From: Gemmatimonadales bacterium
Lineage (GTDB): Bacteria > Gemmatimonadota > Gemmatimonadetes > Gemmatimonadales > GWC2-71-9
Assembly (NCBI GenBank): GCA_037189525.1
Contig: JBBCJC010000005.1
Location: 88,412 to 152,411, forward strand
Reading direction: 5' to 3'
DNA length: 64,000 nucleotides
Shown: one piece after another, positions 2,189-13,823 of the stretch
How the letters are laid out: each line of letters starts with the position of its first letter
How positions within the stretch are numbered: the stretch's first letter is position 1
The notes under the pieces: generated by a model
What the model was told of the DNA's origin: nothing
What the model saw: the letters and a program-made list of their open reading frames with translations, nothing else
The model's database searches: none
Made by a program: the position numbers and the translations under genes

Positions 2189-3490
2189 TCAGGTCGCAGC
2201 AGCCGTCCCGTCCCGATCAAAGACGATCCGGCCCCCCACCACCGTTACCTCGGCCTGCCCCGTGAACGTCTCACCAAGATAGGGGCTGTTGGTGCTCTTG
2301 GAGTGCAAATCCTCTGCCCGAACGATCCACTGGCGGCCCGGGTCGAAGACGACCACGTCGGCGGGGGCTCCGATCGCCAGAGTCCCCCCAGGTAACTTGA
2401 AGACCCGGGCCGGAACCGTGCTCATCCGCGCCACCAGGTCGGGCAGGCTCAGGAGCCCCGGGCTCACCAGCTCGCGGAGCCCGACCGCCAGGGCGGTTTC
2501 GAGGCCGACGATCCCGTTCGGCGCCTGGTCGAACTCGCGTTGCTTGGCATCATAGTGGTGGGGCGCGTGGTCGGTCGCAATGCAGTCGATGGTGCCGTCC
2601 CGAAGCGCCTCCCGAATGGCTTCGACATCGGGATCTTCCCGGAGCGGCGGATTCATCTTGGCGTTGGTGTTGTACGCCTCGCAACAGCGGTGGGTCAGGC
2701 TGAAATGATGCGGGGTCGCCTCGGCCGTCACGTTGAGGCCCTTTTCCTTGGCGCGCCGGATCAGTTCGACCGAACCGCGGGTCGACATGTGGCAGAGGTG
2801 GACGTGCCCACCCGTCAGCTCCGCAAGGATGATGTCCCGCGCCACCATGATCTCTTCGGCCGCCGAGGGGATCCCTTTGAGGCCGAGCCGGGTGGCCACT
2901 TCGCCCTCGTGCATGGCGCCACCCTGCGCCAGGGTGTGGTCTTCGCAGTGGTCGGCGACGGGGATTCCGAAGACCTTGGCATACTCGAGCGCCGTGCGCA
3001 TCAACTGGCTCGACACCACCGGCTTGCCGTCGTCGCTCACCGCCACCGCGCCGGCCCCGATCATCTCACCGAACTCGGCCAGCTGCTGGCCGTTCTGGCC
3101 CAGGGAGACACAGCCGATCGGATAGACGCGCGCCTTGCCGGCCCGGAGCGCCTGCCGCACCACGAACCCGACCGCCGCCTGGTTGTCGATGACCGGATCG
3201 GTGTTGGGCATGGCACAGACACCGGTAAAGCCGCCCGCCACCGCCGACGTGGTCCCGGTGGCAATCGTCTCCATGTGCTCCTGCCCCGGCTCGCGCAGGT
3301 GCACGTGCACGTCGATGAATCCGGGCGCCACCACTTTGCCCGTCGCATCGATCCGCGGGGTGCCTTCCTCGGCGACGATGTTACGGCCCACCGCTTCGAT
3401 CCGGCCATCCTGGATGTAGACATCGGCCACGCCATCGGTGCCGCGGGAGGGATCGATCACGCGCCCCCCGGCAATCAAAAGAGCATTCAT
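2189..3490 (-). CDS. pyrC: Dihydroorotase
   Basis: 433 aa. Contains [14 protein letters not shown] (metal-binding HxH) and a later ATDHAPH motif. ATGA overlap with pyrB. Confidence 0.95.
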
Positions 3491-4443
3491 CGGTCGTCTG
3501 CTGCCTGACTCCGCCAGTCGGGCGACCCGCCGGCGAGGAGATAGAGCACGGCCATTCGCACGGCCACGCCGTTGGTCACCTGGGGAAGAATTACACTATG
3601 CGGGCCGTCGGCCACGTCGCTGTCGATTTCGACGCCGCGGTTCATCGGGCCCGGATGCATGATGATGAGATCCTTGGGCGCCCGCTCCAACCGCTCGGTG
3701 GTCACGCCGAAGATCCGGTTGTACTCACGAAGGGACGGCACGAAGCCCCCTTCCATCCGTTCGAGCTGGAGCCGGAGCACGTTCAACGCATCGGCCCAGC
3801 CGATGGCCTCCTCGATGTGGTGCATCACGGTGACACCGAGCGACTCGAGCCCCTTGGGCAAGAGCGTGGGCGGCCCGCACACCGCCACCTGCGCACCGAG
3901 CTTGGTCAAGCCCCAGATGTTGCTGCGGGCGACCCGGCTGTGCAGCACATCGCCGCAGATGGCGACCTTGAGCCCGTCGATCCGGCCGAACGTGTCACGC
4001 AAGGTGAGCAGATCGAGCAGCGCCTGAGTGGGATGCTCGTGCTTGCCGTCGCCGGCGTTGATGACGTTGGACCTGATCCGTTCACCCAGGAACCGCGCGG
4101 CGCCGCTCGAGGGGTGACGGATCACCACCATGTCGATCCGCATCGCTTCGAGATTACGGGCGGTATCGACCAGAGTCTCGCCCTTGGAGACCGAACTCGC
4201 CTGGGTCGCCACGTTGACCGTGTCGGCCGAGAGCCGCTTTTCGGCAAACTCGAAGGAGATTCGGGTTCGGGTCGAGGCTTCGAAGAAGAGATTGACGATG
4301 GTCTTGCCGCGGAGTGCCGGAACCTTCTTGATCGACCGTTCGCTCACCTCTTTGAACGGCTCGGCCGTGTCCAGGATCGCCACGATCTGTTCGGCCGAAA
4401 GGTGCTCGAGCCCGACCAGGTCCTTGCCCAGAGCGCCGCTCAT
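3487..4443 (-). CDS. pyrB: Aspartate carbamoyltransferase catalytic subunit
   Basis: 318 aa. Contains [13 protein letters not shown] (STRTR carbamoyl-phosphate site), HPTQALLD and HPGPMNRG motifs. ATGA overlaps on both sides. Confidence 0.95.
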
Positions 4444-4979
4444 CGGGCCCGGACCAGCAGGACGGCATCTTCGCCGTCGTGTTCCGCGACCTGGACGTCG
4501 ACCCGATCGCCCGGCACGGTGCCGATGGTCAGGCCCACGATGTCAGCCTGGATCGGCAGTTCCCGACCACCGCGATCGACCAGGACACAGAGCAGGATCC
4601 GCTTGGGCCGTCCGAAATCGGCCAGCTCGTCGAGGGCGGCGCGAATGGTCCGTCCGGTATAGAGCACGTCGTCGACGATCACCACCGTGTGCCCGTCGAT
4701 TTCCCGGGGCAGGCTGGTTTCCCCGACCAGGGGTCGAGGACCGATCGACTGCAGATCGTCGCGGTAGAGGGTGATATCGAGTTTGCCCTGGGGAATCGGA
4801 TGCCCTTCGTTCCGCTCGAGCAAAACGGCGAGACGTTGAGCCAGCTCAACGCCCCGCCGCTGAATTCCCACGAGAATGACCCCTTCGACTCCCTGGCACC
4901 GCTCGACGATTTCACTCGCCATGCGGGACAGTGCGCGACTCATCGCGCGAGCATCGAGAACCCGGCTGGTGGATGTCAT
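4440..4979 (-). CDS. pyrR: Bifunctional pyrimidine operon regulator / uracil phosphoribosyltransferase PyrR
   Basis: 179 aa. Contains [19 protein letters not shown] (PRPP-binding loop) and the PyrR-type N-terminus [13 protein letters not shown]. First gene of pyrR-pyrB-pyrC. Confidence 0.93.
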
Positions 4980-4993
4980 GCCGGGAGCCCAAG

Positions 4994-6301
4994 CTAGTTA
5001 GCGATCATGAGGTCCGCAACCTTGGCGCGCCGGGTGAAAATCTCGGACTGCCCCACTCTCGGCAGCGACATCACCGACTTGGGGTCGTCCATGTTGGGAC
5101 GGGCCGCTTCATCGGCCCGGTACACCTCGGTGGCCTTCTGGCTCCAGGCGACCTGCAGAGTGTCCCGGAGCACCGCAAAGACCGGGTAGGTCGCGGCCCC
5201 GCCCTGGCTCAGCTGAATTTCGGGCCCGAAACTGCCACCCGGCGCGGCCGTTCGGAGCAGAATCCGGGGCGACTGACTCAACCCGTCGTCCCAGCCGACC
5301 ACCGTGCCGAAGTCGCCGACCGCCAGCTGCACATGGGCCGGCGCTGCCTTTTCCCCGACCGCGATGGGCGTGGCCTCGAAGGTTTTTCCGGCATCGGCCG
5401 ACCGGGCATAGTAGACCCCTGCCTCACCCGGCTTCCCGGTCCACCAGGCAATGTGCACCACGCCCGCCTGATCGATCTCGAGCGACGGGCCCGCGTGCGG
5501 GCACCCGCCGAAGACCCAGCCGTCCTCGCGGGGTCGCACCGGCTCGTTCCAGGTGGCGCCACCATCGGGCGACCGCATCACCACGACATCCCGGACTTCG
5601 CCCTCGAAGATCCGGCGCCAGGCCACATAGAGGCTGCCATCCGGACCAAGCGCCAGGCCCGTCCGGCAACAGGGACACGCGGCGGCGCTGTCGATGGCCC
5701 GCGCCGCATCCCAGGTCCGGCCACCATCCTTCGACTGCCGGAGCCAGACCATCGAGCGGCCATGATGGGAACTGAGCCACGCCGCATGCACCGCCCCACC
5801 CGGACCGCCCAGCACGGCGTGGAAATTATGCGAGCCGAACCGTTCGCCCTCGTTGACGCTGACCGGCTCGCGCCAGCTGCGGCCGCCGTCGTCGGACCGG
5901 ATCAGCCGCAGGGCGCTCCTCGGAAAGCGAGAGCCGGGGACTTCCTTCCCGACGGTGTACATCACGTAGATCGCCCCGTCGGACGACTCCGCAAGCTGCG
6001 GAGGCGCCTCCCCGTGCGGGTTGATCCCGCCCAGGGAGTCGCGCACGACGACCACCGGATCGCCCGTAGTGGCCCCGTCACGGGTGACCTCGACGAACAG
6101 CGCCTCGCGGCCGCTCACGGAATCGACCGCGACCCACGAGAGCATCCGGTCGCCGCTCGAGGTCACCAGCATCATCGGCGTGGCCCCCGTTGCGGTTGCC
6201 GCCGACGCCAGCTCGATCGGCGTCATCGGAACTTCGCCAGGTCCGCATCCCGCGGCTGCCGCCAGGGCCAAGGCCCCGATCACCCGTTTCCATTGCATCA
6301 T
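4994..6301 (-). CDS. BNR/Asp-box repeat beta-propeller lipoprotein (sialidase-fold-like, function unknown)
   Basis: ORF 4994..6679 trimmed to ATGATG at 6301-6296, giving MMQWKRVIGALALAAAAGC (signal peptide plus lipobox). Four Asp-boxes: SDDGGRSW, SKDGGRTW, SPDGGATW, SADAGKTF. The start overlaps the upstream receptor stop by 1 nt (TGATG). Confidence 0.8.
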   Translation of the reverse strand: MMQWKRVIGALALAAAAGCGPGEVPMTPIELASAATATGATPMMLVTSSGDRMLSWVAVDSVSGREALFVEVTRDGATTGDPVVVVRDSLGGINPHGEAPPQLAESSDGAIYVMYTVGKEVPGSRFPRSALRLIRSDDGGRSWREPVSVNEGERFGSHNFHAVLGGPGGAVHAAWLSSHHGRSMVWLRQSKDGGRTWDAARAIDSAAACPCCRTGLALGPDGSLYVAWRRIFEGEVRDVVVMRSPDGGATWNEPVRPREDGWVFGGCPHAGPSLEIDQAGVVHIAWWTGKPGEAGVYYARSADAGKTFEATPIAVGEKAAPAHVQLAVGDFGTVVGWDDGLSQSPRILLRTAAPGGSFGPEIQLSQGGAATYPVFAVLRDTLQVAWSQKATEVYRADEAARPNMDDPKSVMSLPRVGQSEIFTRRAKVADLMIAN

Positions 6302-8652
6302 CAGCCTCCCTGTCCGCCGAACCGGTACTGCAATCCGAGGTAGAACGTGCGCGGCGGGCCGGGCCGATAGCGACGACCCTGCAACGCCGTGTACGACGAC
6401 GTCTCGGCAAAGCGGGTATCTCCGATGTTGTGAACCCGGCCGACCACGTCGAACTGCGCCGTCACCGGCAGCGAGCCGGAGACGGAAAAGACGTCGTGTC
6501 CCGCATACTTCTCGGTGTTCTGCGGATCCATCCAGTAGGAGCCCATGTGGAGCCACTCCGCCGCGAGATGACCGCGCCTGAAGGCCCGCGGGGTCAGTGT
6601 CGCGCCGACCCGTCCCATGTCGCGGGGCGCAACCTCGATCTCGTTGCCGCTGTAGTCGAGCGTGGCACTCGGCCGCCACTCCAGGTACTCCTGCTTGGTG
6701 AGCGTCCAGCTGCCATCGATCCTGAGCCCGCGCACCGGCTCGACCGCCGCGCCGAGTTCAATACCGCGGTGCCGAGTGGCGCCGGCATTGCTGGCGCTGC
6801 GCAGGCCGGTGACCGGATCGGTCAGCGTCAGGATGTCGTCTTCGACATCGAGCTGATACGCCGTTGCCTCGAAGCTGACCCGACTCCCCACGGCAATCCG
6901 GGTACCCACCTCGTAGTTGTCCGCTTTGACCGGCGCCAGATCGACGGTGTTGAGCGCCGAGCCCTGCCGGAAGAGCTGACTCTCCGACGGCGCCCTGAAA
7001 GCGGCACGATACGATGCAAAGAGGTTCACGCCGCGTGACACCTCCAGCGAGGCCCCGAGCTTGGGACTCAACCGCTGGTAGGACACGCCCGTCGACGCGG
7101 GACGCCGGTGTGATCCGGTGGCCAGCGGGTCGAGCCGGGTGTCGTAGTCGAAGCCGACGTTGTCGAACCGGAGTCCCAGATCGAAGCGCAGGCCGGTCGC
7201 CGGATTGATCTCCGCCTGGAGATACGGCGACGTCTGCCAGAACGTGACATCGTAGTCGTACTGGACCGCGCCGAGATCGTAGTCGGGAAAGAACGCGCCG
7301 TCGCGCACCGGGACCACCTGCTGCTCGAGCCGGCTGCCCGGGCTCAACTCGAGGTCGACCCCCGCGCTCAGGTTGGTGCGCAGCGGCAGAACCGTATACC
7401 GGTACCGGCCCATCACGCCGACCGACTGATTCTTGCTGTCCCAGATCTGCGGATCGAAGCTGAGCTGCCAGGACGGCATCAGTTCGAGCCGGTTGTGTCG
7501 CCCGTAAAGCGTGGCGGTCAAATGCGACAACCCGCTCTGCCGTTCGAACGACGATGACGCCCGCACGGCCAACACTCGCCGGTAGGCAATCGGAGTGTAG
7601 TTCGCCGTCGGGCGAGTATCGAAGTCGGCCTGGGTGACGTCACTGCCGCCGTCCCCGGGCTGATCGATGTGCGAGAACGCCACGACCGTTTTGAGCAGAG
7701 CGCCGTCGTTGAAGCGGCGATCCCAGCGAACGGTTCCGCTCTGCCGGGCGTAGGGCGCCCCATCGCGGTAGCTGTCCGAGCGCGTCACATTCAGGTCGGC
7801 ACGGAGACCGTTGTTGCCCCAGCTGTTGCTGGCCGTGCCGAGCACCCGGGCGTAACCGAAGCGACCGCCCTCGATGAAGACCTCACCGGTGGGGCGATCG
7901 GTCGGTGAGCGCGTATAGGAACTGACCACGCCGCCGATGGCATCGCTGCCATACAAGGCCGAGCCCGGGCCTTTGATGACCTCGACCCGTTCCGCGCCCG
8001 GGAGATTGACCTCGTAGAGCGCATTGTGATTGAAGAAGCCGGTCGACCGAGTCGGCACGCCGTCTTCGAGAAAGGCGTACATCGGCTTGGTCGTGATCGG
8101 CTGACGGATGGCCGTGAAGTGACCCTCGCCGCTCAGATTGGCCACCCACGCTCCCGGCACCCGCGCCACCACCTCAGCCGGATGATGCGGCAGCGCCTGT
8201 TCGAGGACGCTCCGATCGACGACTCCGACGCTGGCCGTCGCCTCGGACCGGGACTGGGCCTCGCGCGAGACACTGACGACTACGTCGGACAGAACAACCG
8301 CATCGTTGTTGAGCACGGCATCGACCACCGCGACAGCGCCGCCCGTTACCGAGACCGGGATCCGAGCCGTCTTCCAACCAATGGCCCGGATCGCGACCGT
8401 GTAGTCGCCCGCGGGAATCCCCTCGATCCGATAGCGACCATCGGATGACGTCTGCACCGACTTACCGCTGCCGATGACCTGCACCAGGGCGGCGACGACC
8501 GGCTCCTTCGCGGCACCGGTCACCCGCCCTTCCACACCTCCTGTTTGCTGCGCATTGGCGGAGCCCATCATGGCCGTTGCCACGATGCCCGCCAGTCCCA
8601 ACGCCCGAAGGATCCGACCGGCTCTCGACCGGTCACTCCCAAATCCCATCAT
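6301..8652 (-). CDS. TonB-dependent receptor with N-terminal carboxypeptidase-regulatory-like domain
   Basis: ORF 6301..8667 begins at GTG; the first ATG is 8652 (MMGFGSDRSRAGRILRALGLAGIVATAMMGSANAQ, a signal peptide). It has a CarboxypepD_reg pattern (GRVTG..., SDGRYRIEGIPAGDYTV), a plug (VEVIKGPGSALYGSDAIGGVV) and a long beta-barrel ending LGLQYRF followed by GGQGG. Confidence 0.9.
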   Translation of the reverse strand: MMGFGSDRSRAGRILRALGLAGIVATAMMGSANAQQTGGVEGRVTGAAKEPVVAALVQVIGSGKSVQTSSDGRYRIEGIPAGDYTVAIRAIGWKTARIPVSVTGGAVAVVDAVLNNDAVVLSDVVVSVSREAQSRSEATASVGVVDRSVLEQALPHHPAEVVARVPGAWVANLSGEGHFTAIRQPITTKPMYAFLEDGVPTRSTGFFNHNALYEVNLPGAERVEVIKGPGSALYGSDAIGGVVSSYTRSPTDRPTGEVFIEGGRFGYARVLGTASNSWGNNGLRADLNVTRSDSYRDGAPYARQSGTVRWDRRFNDGALLKTVVAFSHIDQPGDGGSDVTQADFDTRPTANYTPIAYRRVLAVRASSSFERQSGLSHLTATLYGRHNRLELMPSWQLSFDPQIWDSKNQSVGVMGRYRYTVLPLRTNLSAGVDLELSPGSRLEQQVVPVRDGAFFPDYDLGAVQYDYDVTFWQTSPYLQAEINPATGLRFDLGLRFDNVGFDYDTRLDPLATGSHRRPASTGVSYQRLSPKLGASLEVSRGVNLFASYRAAFRAPSESQLFRQGSALNTVDLAPVKADNYEVGTRIAVGSRVSFEATAYQLDVEDDILTLTDPVTGLRSASNAGATRHRGIELGAAVEPVRGLRIDGSWTLTKQEYLEWRPSATLDYSGNEIEVAPRDMGRVGATLTPRAFRRGHLAAEWLHMGSYWMDPQNTEKYAGHDVFSVSGSLPVTAQFDVVGRVHNIGDTRFAETSSYTALQGRRYRPGPPRTFYLGLQYRFGGQGG

Positions 8653-8758
8653 ATCCCCATGCTCCACTGCGGCCCCGTATCATCGGCGCCAGTGAATAGC
8701 GAACTGCCCACCCGAAACGAGGGGCAGCCAGATCTGTCAGCTGTGGTTTACCTGCGAA

Positions 8759-9172
8759 TCAGGCGACAGGAGGAGCGTGCGACGGGGGGAGGAGAAACCG
8801 GGGACGCGCAATCCGCTCGGGAGCGGCGGCGGCACCGCGGACGGACACGGACGTGGTCGGCGCCTCGGCCAGTACGACGCCAGGCTCCGGCCCGAGACCG
8901 ACCGTTGCGGCACCGGTACAGGCGCCGATGCAGTGACAGTTCGCGTGAGTGCCATGCGAACCATCGGCATCGGACGACGACTCGCTCTGGGACGCATTCG
9001 CATGCTCGGCGTGGCCGCCGTGGTCATGCTGTCCGGATTGTCCTTGGGCGACCAGCCACGGTGTATCGACCGGGCACGGATCGATGAGGGGAATGATGGT
9101 TCCCGCCACCGGTGGTGAAAGCACCACCAGGAGGCTCGCCAACCATCGCCACTGCCGAAGCCGCCCGATCAT
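8759..9172 (-). CDS. Small His/Cys-rich secreted protein (hypothetical, possible metal binding)
   Basis: 137 aa with an ATG start. N-terminal hydrophobic segment RWLASLLVVLSPPVAG, then HDHGGHAEH, GSHGTHANCHCIGAC. Lies 91 nt upstream of, and co-oriented with, the TonB receptor. No family recognised with certainty. Confidence 0.5.
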   Translation of the reverse strand: MIGRLRQWRWLASLLVVLSPPVAGTIIPLIDPCPVDTPWLVAQGQSGQHDHGGHAEHANASQSESSSDADGSHGTHANCHCIGACTGAATVGLGPEPGVVLAEAPTTSVSVRGAAAAPERIARPRFLLPPSHAPPVA

Positions 9173-9224
9173 CCTTTCAAGGTAACAAATGAGCGAGAAG
9201 GGGCCAACTGACCCCGCCCTGACC

Positions 9225-9854
9225 CTACGGTGCGGACGACGGGCGCCGAGGCCGCAAGACCAGCCGGCTGGCCAGCAGAACGGCCAGAATGGTGGCGTAC
9301 ACGAGCGGCTCGCTCACGTCCCGCTTGACCAGCCAGAAGAAGTGGAGCACCGCGAGCGCGGCGGCGAGATAGACGAGCCGGTGGAGCCGCTGCCAGCGCC
9401 GGCCGAGCCGGCGCACCATGGCGTTCGGCGAGGTCACTGCCAGCACGGCCAGGATCAGAAAGGCGAGAAAGCCGACCAGGACCCAGGGATGCTCCACGAT
9501 GTCGGCGCTGATGTCCGCCACCGAAAGGCGATGATCGAAGACGGCGTAGATGGCCAGATGGAGCGTGGCGTAGAAAAAGGCAAAGAGACCGAGCGGGCGG
9601 CGGAGCCGGATCAGCACGGGCTGACCGAGCAGGCGGCGCACGGGTGTCACCGCCAGCGTCACGAGCAGAATGACCAGCGCCGAAAGCCCGGTGGTGTGGG
9701 TCAGCGTCTTGACGGGATCGGCGCCCAGATCCTGCCGGACGAGTCCGTGAATCAGCCAGGCCGCCGGCGCCAGGCAGGCAACCCAGAGCGCCGGTTTGAG
9801 GACCCATCGCACCAGCGCCGGCAGGCTGCCGGCCCTCCGCACGACATCGCTCAA
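9225..9854 (-). CDS. msrQ: Protein-methionine-sulfoxide reductase heme-binding subunit MsrQ
   Basis: C-terminal ~209 aa of ORF 9225..10115. Polytopic membrane protein with conserved His in TM helices ([19 protein letters not shown]), typical of YedZ/MsrQ. Start placed at TTG 9854 overlapping the msrP stop (TTGA); GTG 9842 is equally possible. Confidence 0.85.
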
Positions 9855-10765
9855 TAGTTCACTCGCAGATCGAGACCGCTGTAGAGCGAAGCCACCTGAT
9901 CGGCATATCCGTTGAACAGGAGAGTCGGCCGACGGAAAAATTCGCCCAGCCGCCGCTCCGACTTCTGGCTCCAGCGCGGATGCGACACGTCCGGGTTGAC
10001 GTTGGCGTAGAAGCCGTACTCCTGCGGAGCTGCCACGTTCCAGGTCGTCGCCGGCTGCGATTCGGAAAAGCGGATTTCGACGATGCTCTTGCCGCCCTTG
10101 AAGCCGTACTTCCACGGCACCGTGAGCCGGAGCGGCGCGCCGTTCTGGTTGAGCAGCGGCTTGCCGTAGATGCCGGTTGCCAGCAGGGTGAGCGGATGGC
10201 TCGCTTCATCCAGACGCAGCGCCTCGACGTAGGGCCAGTCGAGGGTCCGGCTCCGCTGCCCGGGCATCTGCTTGGGATCGTACAGCGTCGCGAACTCCAC
10301 GAACTTCGCCTTGCTGCCGGGTTCGAGTTTCCGGATCAGATCACCCAGCCGAATGCCCTGCCAGGGAATCACCATCGACCAGGCCTCGACGCAGCGCATC
10401 CGGTAGGTGCGCTCGACGACGGGCAGGCCCTTGAGCAGGTCGTCCAGGTCGTACGTGGCCGGGCGTTTGACCTCACCGGCCACCTTGACCACCCATGGCT
10501 TGGTGCGGAGCGAGCCCGCGTTCCGGGAGGGATCCTCTTTGTCGGTGCCGAACTCGTAAAAATTGTTGTAGGTCGTCACGACGTCGTACGGCGTCGGTTT
10601 GTCCTCGGGTTGACGGCCCTGTAAGGTGCGCGCCTGCACCATCCCGGGAGCGGCCAGCGCCGCCATGGTCACCCCCGCGGTTTTGAGCCACTCGCGCCGG
10701 GTGTGATAGAGCCCTTCGTCGGTGATGTCCGAATCGGGAATGTCTGGCGCTCGACGAATCAGCAT
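9851..10765 (-). CDS. msrP: Protein-methionine-sulfoxide reductase catalytic (molybdopterin) subunit MsrP
   Basis: ORF 9851..10831 trimmed to ATG 10765. [40 protein letters not shown] is a twin-arginine signal and is collinear with the E. coli YedY N-terminus. The YNNFYEFG motif is present. Confidence 0.92.
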
Positions 10766-10865
10766 GGCGGTTCTCCGTCTCCCTCTCGATCCTTCCAATC
10801 TATCACGTCCGGAGACGAGAAAGTCGGGCAACCCGACCGGGCGGCCCGACTTCGCGAATTTCCAA

Positions 10866-10953
10866 CGGTGCGAGTGAGATTCGAACTCACGAGACCCTTA
10901 GGAGGTCTGCCACCTTTCCAGGGTGGTGCCTTCAACCACTCGGCCATCGCACC
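10866..10953 (-). tRNA. tRNA-Ser (anticodon GGA)
   Basis: Minus-strand sequence GGTGCGATGGCCGAGTGGTTGAAGGCACCACCCTGGAAAGGTGGCAGACCTCCTAAGGGTCTCGTGAGTTCGAATCTCACTCGCACCG. It folds as a 7-bp acceptor, anticodon stem CCACC/GGTGG with loop CTGGAAA, a long variable arm (class II), and T-loop TTCGAAT. No encoded CCA. Confidence 0.9.
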
Positions 10954-11024
10954 TCATGACGACTGGCGCCCGTTTGGGCCGGCGGCAACATAGCCCGCCC
11001 GCCAGAGAGCGTCAACGCGGCACG

Positions 11025-13823
11025 CTATCGGGCGGTTGCCTTGGCCGGACGCCGTTTGGTGGCCGTTCCCTTCGCTTTGGCCTTGGGCTTGGCGGCTGCC
11101 TTGGGCTTGGCGGCCGACTTGGCCGTCGATCCCGCTTTGGCCTTGGCCGCGCGCTTGGCACTGCCGGCGCGCTTGACCTTGGCCGTCAGCGGATCGGGCG
11201 CCGAGCGACCTTTGACCGACCGCTTGGCCCCGCCCGCCGGCTTGGCGCCCGCGCGTTTGGCTTTCGACTTGGCCTTGCCGCCACCTCGGGCAGCAATCCA
11301 CTCGACCGCCTGCTCGACCGTGACGGTGGCAGGATCGATATCCTTGGGGATCGACGCGCTGACGTCGCCGTGCTTGACGTAGGGACCATACTTCCCTTCG
11401 TACAACCCGATGGGCGCCTGGTCGGCAGGATGCGGACCAACCTCGCGAATCGGCGTTGCCGCCATCCGGCGCCCGCGGCCCAGCTTGGGCTGCGCCAGGA
11501 GTTCGAGGGCGCGTTCGAGGGTCACGGTCAGGACGTGGTCCTCGCCCTTCAAAGAGCGATAGTCCTTGACCTTGCCCTGATCGTGCACGATGTAGGGACC
11601 GAACCGTCCCTGCCCCGCCAGAACCCGGGCGCCGGTCTCCGGATGCGCACCGAGCGTACGCGGCAGCGCCAGCAGACCGACCGCCATCTCCAGCGTGACC
11701 TGATCGGTGGTGACACCCTTGGGCAACGAGGCCCGCTTCGGCTTCGGATTGTCGTCGGAGACGATACCGAGTTGGACGTAGGGACCATACTGCCCGGTCA
11801 GGAGCAGAATCGGTTCAGCGGTGTCCGGATGGTTTCCGACGATTTCCGGGCCTTCGGCTTTCTGGCGCAGGACTTCGTCGACCTGATCCCGGGAGAGGTC
11901 GGCCGGCGCGGAATCGCGCGGGAGCGACGCTTTGAGGAGTTCGCCGTCTTCCGACACGACTTCGACGTACGGTCCGAAGCGGCCGATCTTGACGCTGGCA
12001 CCGTCCAGCCCGTCGATCTCGATGGTCCGCGCCGCAACCGGGTCGATCCCCTTTTCGCGCGATGCGACCTGTTGCCGGAGTCCGGTGCGGCCCAAATAGA
12101 AATCGCGGAGATACGGCAACCATTCGGCGTTGCCCTCCGAGATGTCGTCGAGGGTCTGTTCCATTCCGGCCGTGAACTTGGGATCGACCAGCGACGGGAA
12201 GTGGTGCTCGAGCAGACTGGTCACGCCGAACGCGGTGAAAGTCGGCACCAGCGCCTGCCCCTGCTTCTGGACGTAGCCGCGATCGATGATGGTGTCGATG
12301 ATCGATGCGTAGGTACTGGGGCGCCCGATCCCGTCGGCCTCGAGTTCCTTGACCAGACTGGCTTCCGTGTAGCGGGCCGGCGGCTGCGTCTCGTGGGAGA
12401 CGGCCGCGAGTTCCCGGCAAGCGGGGCGGTCGCCGACGGCCAGGTCGGGCAGCAAAACTTCCTGATCTTCGAGCGCCGCTTCCGGGTCGTCGCTGCCTTC
12501 GACGTAAGCGCGCAGGAAGCCGGGGAAATCGATCCGCTTGCCCGCGGCGCGGAAGGTGGCTTCCTCGACATCGATGGTGACGACCACGCTGGTGAGCCGC
12601 GCATCGAGCATCTGCGACGCCACGGTGCGCTTCCAGATCAGATCGTAGACCGCCAGCTCCCGTCCGCTCAGGCCGGTCTCCTCCGGCGTGCGGAAATGCG
12701 AGCCGGCCGGCCGGATGGCCTCGTGCGCTTCCTGCGCTGACGCGCTCTTGCTGACGTACTGGCGGGGCGACTTGGGCAGATACTGGTCGCCGTAGAGCCG
12801 CGAGACGCATTCGCGCGCCGCACCGAGCGCCTGTTGCGACAGGTGCACGGAGTCGGTACGCATGTAGGTGATGAAGCCCTCTTCGTAGAGCTTCTGCGCC
12901 GTCCGCATCGCCTCGCGAGCCGAGAGGCGCAGCTTGCGGTTGGCCTCCTGCTGCAAGGTCGAGGTGATGAACGGGGGCGCCGGCCGGCGGGTAAACGGCT
13001 TTTCCTCCGCCGACCCAACCGTCCAGGCCGCTGCCCGGAGCCGGTCGGCCAACGATTCGGCCCCGGGGCCGTCGAGCAGCACCACATCTTTTCCGGCCGC
13101 GAGCTTGCCGGTCCGCTCGTCGAAGTCCTTACCGGTGGCGAGGCGCTTTCCGGCCAGGGAGACCAACTGCGCGTCGAACGACTGATCGCGGTGTTCCAGG
13201 GTCGCGGCCAGGTCCCAGTAGACGCCGGGGACGAAGGCCCGCCGCTCGCGCTCGCGCATTACCAGGAGCCGCACCGCCACCGACTGGACTCGTCCCGCGG
13301 ACAGCCCGTACGCGATCTTCTTCCAGAGGAGCGGCGACAAGGTATAGCCGAACAACCGGTCCAAGATCCGCCGGGTTTCCTGCGCACGTACCAGACGGTC
13401 GTCGACCGCGCGGGTCTGCTCGAGCGCCTCCCGGATCGCTTCCCGGGTGATCTCGTGAAAGACCATCCGCTTGACGGGCACCCGCGGCTTGAGCAACTCG
13501 GACAGGTGCCACGAAATACTTTCACCCTCGCGGTCTTCGTCCGTCGCGAGGATCAGTTCGTCGGCGTCGGACAGGGCCGACTTGAGTTCCTTGACGATGT
13601 GCTTCTTGTCCGACGGTACCACGTAGAGGGGTTCGAAGTCCTGGTCGACATTGACGCCGAGCCGGCTCCACTCTTCGCCTTTGACCTTGGCGGGAATATC
13701 CGACGCCCGATCCGGCAGGTCGCGCACGTGCCCCATCGACGCGACCACCTTATATCCACGGGGAAGGAACTCGCGGATGGTCCGCGCCTTGGTGGGTGAC
13801 TCGACGATGACGAGAGTGGACAT
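11025..13823 (-). CDS. topA: DNA topoisomerase I (type IA)
   Basis: 932 aa. N-terminus [21 protein letters not shown] (Toprim), plus the ITYMRTDS active-site Tyr region. The C-terminal region has four G(R/Q/K)(F/Y)GPY(V/I) repeats with no Cys4 zinc fingers, followed by an Ala/Lys-rich basic tail. Confidence 0.97.

Follow-up and report, generated by a model that had tools for sequence, protein, structure and literature searches.

A small Cys/His-rich ORF before a TonB-dependent transporter and a propeller lipoprotein in Gemmatimonadales: a probable metal-sensing leader of the CruR/CutF type

The subject of this work is a string of genes in a 64,000-nucleotide (nt) stretch of DNA from a Gemmatimonadales bacterium (GCA_037189525.1, contig JBBCJC010000005.1, positions 88,412-152,411; hereafter the window, in whose positions all coordinates are given). 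Here, on the minus strand, a small open reading frame (ORF) of 137 residues (8759-9172) precedes a gene for a TonB-dependent transporter (6301-8652) and one for a BNR/Asp-box propeller lipoprotein of 435 residues (4994-6301). The small ORF is a real, conserved gene, and its architecture, the spacing of its motifs, its nucleotide composition and its synteny are all conserved with it. We consider it fairly probable that this ORF, which we call the leader, is a cis-acting, metal-sensing element of the kind represented by CruR and CutF, and that it gates the expression of the transporter and the lipoprotein.

Both of these regulators act as nascent peptides. CruR of Bordetella pertussis (Bp2923, DUF2946) has a CXXC motif, then 45 residues, then an RAPP motif three residues from its end, and its gene lies upstream of the bfrG transporter operon with a 162-nt spacer and a Rho-utilisation (rut) 'bubble' in which C exceeds G (PMC9426467). 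Copper relieves the arrest of CruR translation, allowing Rho termination (PMC9426467), and the substitution R139A abolishes the arrest in vitro (PMC12992588). CutF, encoded in cutFOG of Rhodobacter capsulatus, has a Sec signal, a CxxxC motif, 45 residues and a proline-rich end; here copper lengthens the pause, and a stem-loop over cutO's Shine-Dalgarno sequence is opened (PMC9973294). The spacing between the cysteines and the proline motif is functionally important in both (PMC9426467; PMC9973294).

The leader and its family

The original prediction, made from the letters of the sequence alone, described three co-oriented minus-strand ORFs as a possible metal-linked uptake module, and all three are present and translate as it gave them. 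An exhaustive search with phmmer, over 1.84 billion representative proteins, places the smallest of them, whose conservation had been left as a question, in a family with fixed motifs: its homologues form 85 clusters (50% identity) at E<=1e-3, nearly all full-length at 115-145 residues. A profile search of a word-indexed database with an alignment of 80 leader sequences gave 13 matches, none of which carries a Pfam annotation. Relatives with a genomic context were sought with a 12-sequence subset alignment, and the pattern [DH]PCP[VI]DxPW was recovered in 23 species-representative genomes or loci, all of them Gemmatimonadales; the window itself holds a single copy of the leader. Between that copy and its closest genomic relative (L003), 38 codons differ by synonymous changes only and 29 by non-synonymous ones, which argues for selection on the leader peptide.

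The product, MIGRLRQWRWLASLLVVLSPPVAG...DPCPVDTPW...HDHGGHAEH...HGTHANCHCIGAC...RPRFLLPPSHAPPVA, bears out the N-terminal hydrophobic segment and the HDHGGHAEH stretch that had been read from the translation. Residues 1-24 (MIGRLRQWRWLASLLVVLSPPVAG; 9101-9172, minus strand) are basic and then hydrophobic and resemble a signal peptide; as a sequence pattern they make a candidate Sec signal with a basic n-region, a hydrophobic helix at residues 3-18 and a VAG/T-like site, and the family consensus at this end is LRRxRxLAxLLLxASPxxGG. The DPCPVDTPW motif (residues 31-39; 9056-9082, minus strand), of which P32, C33 and P34 are invariant or nearly so in the family, is joined by a His-rich linker of variable length to H76-x2-C79-H-C81-I-G-A-C85 (8918-8947, minus strand), whose conservation makes it a candidate metal-binding (or redox) motif. 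Among the 80 aligned leaders C79, C81 and P135 are invariant, and R9, P20, G24, P32, C33, H51, H54, G83, C85, P129, A133 and P134 are conserved in at least 90%; the CxCxxxC pattern is found in 69 of them, and there is no CXXC.

The other end of the protein is equally constrained. PPSHAPP (residues 129-135; 8768-8788, minus strand), a candidate translation-pause motif by its conservation, stands two codons before the stop and is the local form of a C-terminal motif LPPx(T/H/N)APP. In the 78 sequences compared this motif occurs as TAPP 63 times, as HAPP (the form in the window) six times, as NAPP three times and never as RAPP; two or three residues follow xAPP in 73 of them, two in the window. 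From the last Cys to xAPP there are 46±1 residues in 72 of the 78 sequences, with 46 between C85 and H132 in the window. This spacer varies freely in sequence but not in length, a pattern typical of a ruler and not of a fold.

Synteny of leader, transporter and propeller

The order leader, transporter, BNR gene is found in about 15 genome loci, and in two more, probably three (L005, L010 and probably L015), the leader is followed by a different transporter of 681 residues and no BNR gene; the remaining genome loci of the family are contigs that end within the locus. In L005 (7967-10443) and L010 (about 9000-11465) this shorter transporter is without a CarboxypepD_reg domain. Approached from the other side, by way of the BNR gene in 80 metagenomic loci (43-73% identity), the linkage is tight: the transporter lies immediately upstream of the BNR gene in 44 of the 47 loci with enough flank, and a leader of this family lies upstream in all 29 loci that extend 3 kb or more in that direction. 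The three genes are thus syntenic in relatives, as the original prediction had proposed to look for. A TonB-dependent transporter follows the leader in every family locus, including L005 and L010.

What lies before the leader is far less constant. In the window it is preceded by msrP-msrQ (9225-10765, minus strand), assigned by NCBIfam equivalog models for MsrP (1.1e-136) and MsrQ (2.8e-61). MsrPQ stands upstream of the leader in 12 of the 23 genome loci and in seven of the 29 metagenome loci; elsewhere the place is taken by a Ser/Thr kinase with tetratricopeptide repeats or by a class V aminotransferase. At locus L110 the leader comes first in its unit, which is not so in the window, where it follows msrPQ. 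MsrPQ as an obligatory part of the module was rejected on account of this variable presence. Variable MsrPQ together with the strong linkage of leader and transporter identifies the conserved core as leader plus transporter, usually with the BNR gene.

Nucleotide and RNA features

The 3' end of the leader ORF (8760-8893, minus strand) is rich in C and poor in G, a composition that makes it a candidate Rho-utilisation region; 78-nt segments starting -134 to -56 from the stop codon hold 42-50% C and 23-37% G, and those at -56 and -30 hold 40-41% C and 23-24% G. The bias is general in the family, since the excess of C over G in the final 150 nt of the leader ORF is positive in 20 of 20 loci (mean +0.16) and close to zero inside the transporter gene.

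Between leader and transporter lies an intergenic spacer (8653-8758, minus strand) with a hairpin at 8704-8727 and a second hairpin that ends at the GGAG Shine-Dalgarno sequence. Its length was first given as 91 nt, which is right if the transporter begins at an alternative GTG (8667); from the ATG at 8652, which gives a transporter of 783 residues, the gap is 106 nt. The first hairpin is present as predicted and has an 11-base-pair stem with one bulge (5' arm 8727-8718, UUU loop, 3' arm 8714-8704). The intergenic fold of the window is unexceptional alone (z = -0.66 against dinucleotide shuffles; z = -2.03 with flanks), and the individual hairpin carries little weight. A spacer of 57-140 nt is, on the other hand, a feature of all 20 relatives examined, and folding of their spacers is a little more stable than that of shuffled sequences (mean z -1.29, 13 of 20 below -1).

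In the window the stretch of Pro codons (CUCCCCCCGUCGCACGCUCCUCC) pairs with the ribosome-binding region of the transporter at -22.1 kcal/mol, a pairing that ranks first of 115 among ORF windows and eighth of 121 among target windows. RNAalifold finds the equivalent in a six-sequence subgroup, where CCACCG Pro codons pair with CGGTGG directly 5' of GGAGG; as a family-wide device, shielding of the Shine-Dalgarno sequence by Pro codons is unsupported outside the window and this subgroup. Another recurrent element among the relatives is a GC-rich hairpin that starts a few nt after the leader stop and falls in the top 10% of background in nine of 20. In six loci (L012, L013, L018, L019, L021 and L024) a near-identical GCGCGC-(tetraloop)-GCGCGC hairpin begins at the first base after the leader stop, and two more conserved hairpins precede GGAGG; the window is without this arrangement. 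A riboswitch or other known RNA in the spacer was rejected on the absence of any Rfam match there even at E<=1.

Comparison with CruR, CutF, CopL and CzcI

Set beside CruR, the leader is again a small ORF with a signal-like N-terminus that stands, with a long spacer, upstream of a TonB-dependent transporter; its Cys motif likewise lies about 45-46 residues before xAPP, xAPP likewise lies two or three residues from the C-terminus, and C exceeds G at the 3' end of an ORF whose protein body is predicted to be unstructured. The differences are just as definite. CxCxxxC takes the place of CXXC and T/H/N-APP that of RAPP, and DPCPVDxPW is additional; the leader is internal to a co-oriented string after msrPQ, whereas CruR comes first in its operon; the partner is a BNR propeller and not a PepSY_TM protein, and the transporter belongs to neither the BfrG nor the OprC type; and the family is that of Gemmatimonadales, which are absent from the published CruR survey (PMC9426467).

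The CutF-like class (PMC9973294) is matched in the length of 137 residues, in C81xxxC85 with accompanying His, in PP at 134-135 and 129-130 and in a same-strand transporter gene 91-106 nt downstream. As in CutF itself, the spacer of the window is structured and is predicted to pair with the Shine-Dalgarno sequence of the gene downstream, and the proline motif is probably weak as an arrest sequence on its own. Here, however, the downstream gene encodes a transporter, in place of the multicopper oxidase of CutF, the spacer is longer than most in the class, and Shine-Dalgarno shielding is not family-wide. Neither 'Gemmatimon' nor 'BNR' occurs as an entry in the table of CruR homologues (Table S1 of PMC9426467) or in the main text and the searched supplements of the CutF paper (PMC9973294). 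The suggestion that a BNR partner lies outside the known versions agrees with the gene families of Roy et al. (PMC9426467) and with that table.

The original prediction raised the DUF2946-type regulatory ORF as a model, and that model holds for architecture, motif spacing, C-rich 3' end, long spacer and synteny; it does not hold for formal membership, CXXC or RAPP. The alignment to DUF2946 (PF11162) runs from end to end (residues 10-135 against positions 2-117 of 117), and its score is below threshold (13.6 bits against a gathering cutoff of 23.7, E = 0.11). Within the family the resemblance is more distinct: DUF2946 is matched by three of the 80 members at E<0.01 (best 8.7e-5) and by 28 at E<=1, and the next most frequent Pfam family by three. 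Because of the sub-threshold score and the missing CXXC and RAPP we do not count the leader among the members of DUF2946; we place it as a divergent relative or an analogue of CruR and CutF that most likely works as they do, with a pause that is probably weaker or context-dependent.

Several observations weigh against this assignment. Besides the score below the DUF2946 threshold, the window leader has no match to CopL_fam (NF033807) at E<=1, and hhalign of the leader family against a small CopL-like set, as a stand-in for a DUF2946 alignment, gives a probability of 32%. In place of the Arg of RAPP, which CruR needs for arrest, there is Thr, His or Asn. Among 487 larger ORFs of the leader loci TAPP shows no depletion (12 observed against about seven expected) and is therefore unlikely to be a strong arrest sequence by itself; RAPP is mildly depleted in the same set (five against 10-14). 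On the RNA level, the pairing of Pro codons with the ribosome-binding region is weakly enriched across 20 loci (median rank about 0.24, four of 20 in the top 10%), and neither the window nor its nearest relative has the stop-adjacent hairpin. Finally, 37 orthologues show that the transporter has no Cys, no conserved Met and no OprC copper site, and it is most like PqqU and YncD.

These points bear on the main competitor, in which the leader, unlike the rapidly degraded CutF and CruR, is a stable exported or membrane-anchored metal-binding protein, serving as a chaperone in the periplasm or as a sensor in trans, as has been proposed for CzcI or CopL. Like these, it is small, rich in Cys and His and encoded upstream of presumed metal-homeostasis genes, and distant, sub-threshold sequence relationships exist: 14 of the 80 family members resemble CopL_fam at E<=1 (best 1.2e-5, below the 40-bit cutoff) and one is a CzcI. 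A homologue search from the CopL-like protein P0094 returned five close relatives only. A signal-like N-terminus, invariant Cys and His and a DPCPVDxPW motif for which a pure arrest peptide has no obvious need fit such a protein, as do the missing arrest Arg and the indifference of other proteins to TAPP. Unlike the leader, CzcI has no C-terminal proline motif, and the genes downstream of CopL and CzcI encode efflux or oxidase systems and not an uptake receptor. Against a stable protein, the AlphaFold2 model from 13 aligned sequences has one helix, at residues 3-18, and is otherwise without predicted secondary or tertiary structure (pTM, the predicted template modelling score, 0.20); the spacer keeps its length to within one residue as its sequence varies, and APP is always two or three codons from the stop. 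Third-codon-position GC content is also lower in the leader (0.72) than in the neighbouring genes (0.82-0.86), and a long structured spacer follows the leader, in contrast to the overlapping junction of transporter and BNR gene. A stable protein is therefore, in our judgement, unlikely, and the reading of the ORF as a leader peptide is the one we follow below.

The ligand: copper and other signals

The pointer to copper is indirect and comes mainly from relatives of the leader in other surroundings. P0092, from a Gemmatimonadales metagenome-assembled genome (L109, 6001-10714), is a family member by profile search (E = 5e-8) that ends in LPFAIAPPAQA and has 49 residues from Cys to PP, as in the window; it stands first in an operon that continues with a TonB-dependent transporter, a CopC-CopD fusion and a DUF1775/YcnI protein. 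The TonB-dependent transporter, CopC/CopD and YcnI are all among the gene types listed in DUF2946 operons (PMC9426467). A CopL-like outlier, P0093 (L106, 6001-10987, Gilvimarinus japonicus), is followed after 62 nt by RND efflux genes of the cusB-cusA type; it ends in RLRPPIFA and has 40 residues rather than 49 between the last Cys and PP. Two more pointers to copper are the thiol reductase gene that follows a divergent trio (P0091, below) and the tie of MsrPQ to copper stress in Escherichia coli (PMC9302797). By analogy with these paralogues and with CruR and CutF, the ligand of the leader is probably a metal, and that metal copper. The metal link first proposed for the module thus gains from the copper association of a paralogous leader and loses from a transporter that is not of the OprC type.

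Three conserved cysteines could also serve a thiol chemistry by which the leader senses oxidation and ties transporter and propeller to the repair of proteins by MsrPQ. The leader often abuts or overlaps msrQ, as about half of the loci illustrate, with overlapping stop and start codons in several of them. The authors of the CutF study themselves discuss disulfide formation as an alternative folding force (PMC9973294). A divergent trio, P0091 (L108, 3583-8258), consists of a leader ending in YTTGPPRA, a transporter and a BNR gene and is followed by a TlpA/ResA-like thiol-disulfide oxidoreductase; this neighbour hints that the cysteines of the propeller are kept reduced. Against oxidation sensing, MsrPQ is absent from about half of the genome loci and from 22 of the 29 metagenome loci, and the contexts of the paralogues are copper genes. 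Since MsrPQ of Escherichia coli is tied to copper stress (PMC9302797), the linkage to MsrPQ does not discriminate between a metal and an oxidation signal. We regard an oxidation sensor as most improbable and retain copper as the probable ligand.

The transporter and its propeller partner

The transporter consists of an N-terminal CarboxypepD_reg domain, a plug (PF07715, 2.8e-15) and a barrel (PF00593, TonB_dep_Rec_b-barrel, 7.6e-38) by Pfam, the latter two above threshold. Its nearest solved structures are PqqU (9c4o, 5e-30) and YncD (6v81), both matched over plug and barrel at E of about 1e-30, and like PqqU it has no inner-membrane transporter encoded alongside. Unlike PqqU and YncD it has the additional CarboxypepD_reg domain, and with 117.4 bits against a cutoff of 1200 it is not a member of the PqqU equivalog NF041535. 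The OprC/NosA family TIGR01778 is missing among the best 25 of its 33 NCBIfam matches, and OprC is absent from its PDB matches. H157, H209 and H628 are invariant in the 37 orthologues. Direct copper binding of the OprC type was rejected for want of Cys and conserved Met, and these absences, with the likeness to PqqU and YncD, suggest that the substrate may be a chelate or a cofactor rather than a free ion.

The gene overlaps that of the lipoprotein by one base, as had been noticed (TGATG; transporter stop TGA 6303-6301, BNR start ATG 6301-6299). The GGQGG tail that follows the last aromatic residue of the transporter is also there; its description as unusual does not stand, because 67 of 73 orthologues carry a short, non-conserved tail after the last aromatic residue and only six end on one. 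Its codons, ggc gga cag gga ggc (6301-6316, minus strand), hold the GGAGG that serves the overlapping BNR gene as Shine-Dalgarno sequence, which explains the non-aromatic C-terminus. A functional role of the tail as such was rejected on these grounds.

The lipoprotein, of which at least 178 metagenomic orthologues exist, matches BNR_2 (PF13088) at E = 3.1e-13 (score 50.2 bits, threshold 31.4) and has, as first described, four Asp-boxes (SDDGGRSW, SKDGGRTW, SPDGGATW and SADAGKTF), which are spaced by 54-57 residues. Its lipobox, by sequence pattern, is LAAAAG/C19, and the Cys is kept in 13 of 14 orthologues. A profile search against the PDB finds glycoside hydrolase family 33 (GH33) sialidases at 9e-9; an AlphaFold2 model from the single sequence is poor (predicted local distance difference test, pLDDT, 47.5), and Foldseek with this low-confidence model returns sialidases at a template modelling (TM) score of about 0.45, a match at the level of the fold only. 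Judged from the sequence, the protein has the fold of a sialidase-type six-bladed propeller. What it does not share with GH33 enzymes is its attachment as a lipoprotein, its genetic fixation to a TonB-dependent transporter and a set of residues of its own: across the 14 orthologues Cys19, H96-G-E, H158-N-F-H161, C209-P-C-C212-R-T, G-C267-P-H269, H283 and H323 are invariant or nearly so, which gives HNFH, CPCC, CPH and lone His residues some 20 residues beyond consecutive Asp-boxes. Most of the invariant or nearly invariant residues lie about 17-21 residues after successive boxes, equivalent positions in consecutive blades, and this arrangement suggests that one face of the propeller carries a site made of Cys and His. 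The protein may nonetheless be a hydrolase. The BNR propeller is an undescribed partner protein of the transporter that the leader is proposed to regulate.

One might still see in the pair a SusC-like transporter and a GH33-like enzyme for the uptake of a glycan, such as a sialic or nonulosonic acid-like sugar, with the small ORF unrelated or merely regulatory. BNR_2 and the sialidase fold would suit this, and so would the CarboxypepD_reg domain and a partial SusC/RagA match of the transporter. Yet none of the variable contexts examined contains SusD-like, sugar-catabolism or inner-membrane transport genes, some trios use transporters without CarboxypepD_reg, the invariants of the propeller are Cys and His at equivalent blade positions, and elsewhere the leader family goes with CopCD-YcnI and CusBA. 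Glycan uptake is for these reasons very unlikely. The idea that the ORF encodes the precursor of a ribosomally made, Cys-containing metallophore, re-imported by the transporter, draws on the superficial likeness to methanobactin loci of a small, Cys/His-rich exported peptide beside a TonB-dependent transporter. It is hardly credible, because maturase genes, of the MbnB/C type or other, are lacking in every context examined and because the conserved features extend over 130 residues, with a fixed spacer and a C-terminal APP, and not over a short core peptide. Regulation by a metal-sensing leader is the reading that we carry forward.

Surroundings of the string

With msrQ (9225-9857) and msrP (9851 to about 10765, both minus strand) co-oriented upstream, the gene string is longer than first described, and 52 nt separate msrQ from the leader. 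The mechanical msrP ORF (9851-10831, minus strand) opens at a TTG at 10831, and the MsrP equivalog alignment begins at its residue 23, so the true start is probably a Met at about 10765. Further upstream follow a tRNA-Ser gene and topA; the tRNA-Ser(GGA) gene occupies 10866-10953 (minus strand), between topA and msrP. Only one sigma-70-like promoter was matched in the region, at 11015-10987; it stands upstream of the tRNA and not directly before msrP or the leader, and a scan of 4800-11200 for intrinsic terminators found none on the minus strand.

On the far side, 14 nt after the BNR gene and on the same strand (2189-4979), come a pyrR-like gene and two more ORFs, which by eye resemble aspartate carbamoyltransferase (318 residues) and dihydroorotase (433 residues). 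As pyrR is kept downstream even where the type of transporter differs, the unit of leader and transporter occupies a conserved slot that reaches from msrQ (or another gene) to pyrR.

Proposed mechanism

The pause, the ligand and the direction of regulation in the scheme that we propose are taken over by analogy from CruR and CutF. A ribosome translating the leader would slow at LPPSHAPP, two codons before the stop, at the moment when, about 49 residues behind, the CxCxxxC/His cluster would just have come clear of the exit tunnel. If a metal, most likely copper, were bound by this cluster, the dwell time of the ribosome would change. Ribosome occupancy could then control whether Rho gains access to the C-rich end of the leader, following the logic of CruR, or the folding of the spacer of about 100 nt that contacts the ribosome-binding site of the transporter, following that of CutF, or both, and the outcome would set the levels of transporter and lipoprotein. 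The position of the leader after msrPQ would allow the uptake genes to be switched independently of the repair genes upstream.

A bolder combination of these ideas seems to us rather unlikely to hold in all its parts, and we put it forward tentatively. A lineage of Gemmatimonadales may have evolved a copper-sensing arrest peptide with (T/H)APP and without the Arg, which by acting in the middle of a unit might uncouple the uptake module from msrPQ as induced by copper or oxidants. The obligate partner of the regulated transporter might be a new type of sialidase-fold propeller lipoprotein, in which each blade could supply a Cys or His (HGE, HNFH, CPCC, CPH and H) to a central site for a metal or cofactor. 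The propeller might then be an unrecognised periplasmic or surface component of copper handling.

Implications

The sensing of metals by nascent peptides of the CruR/CutF type is a recent discovery, and which residues cause stalling and how the binding of the ligand is transmitted are still being worked out. If our reading of the leader is true, a deep-branching clade that has the ruler of about 45 residues and the APP motif, but neither the 'essential' Arg nor CXXC, would help to separate what is indispensable in such regulators from what is specific to a lineage, and CruR/CutF-type regulation would extend to Gemmatimonadota. That the transporter is invariably paired with a BNR protein marked by Cys and His points to an uncharacterised accessory protein for TonB-dependent uptake. 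The propeller is thereby a testable candidate for a part in the acquisition of copper, or of a related cofactor, by abundant soil bacteria.

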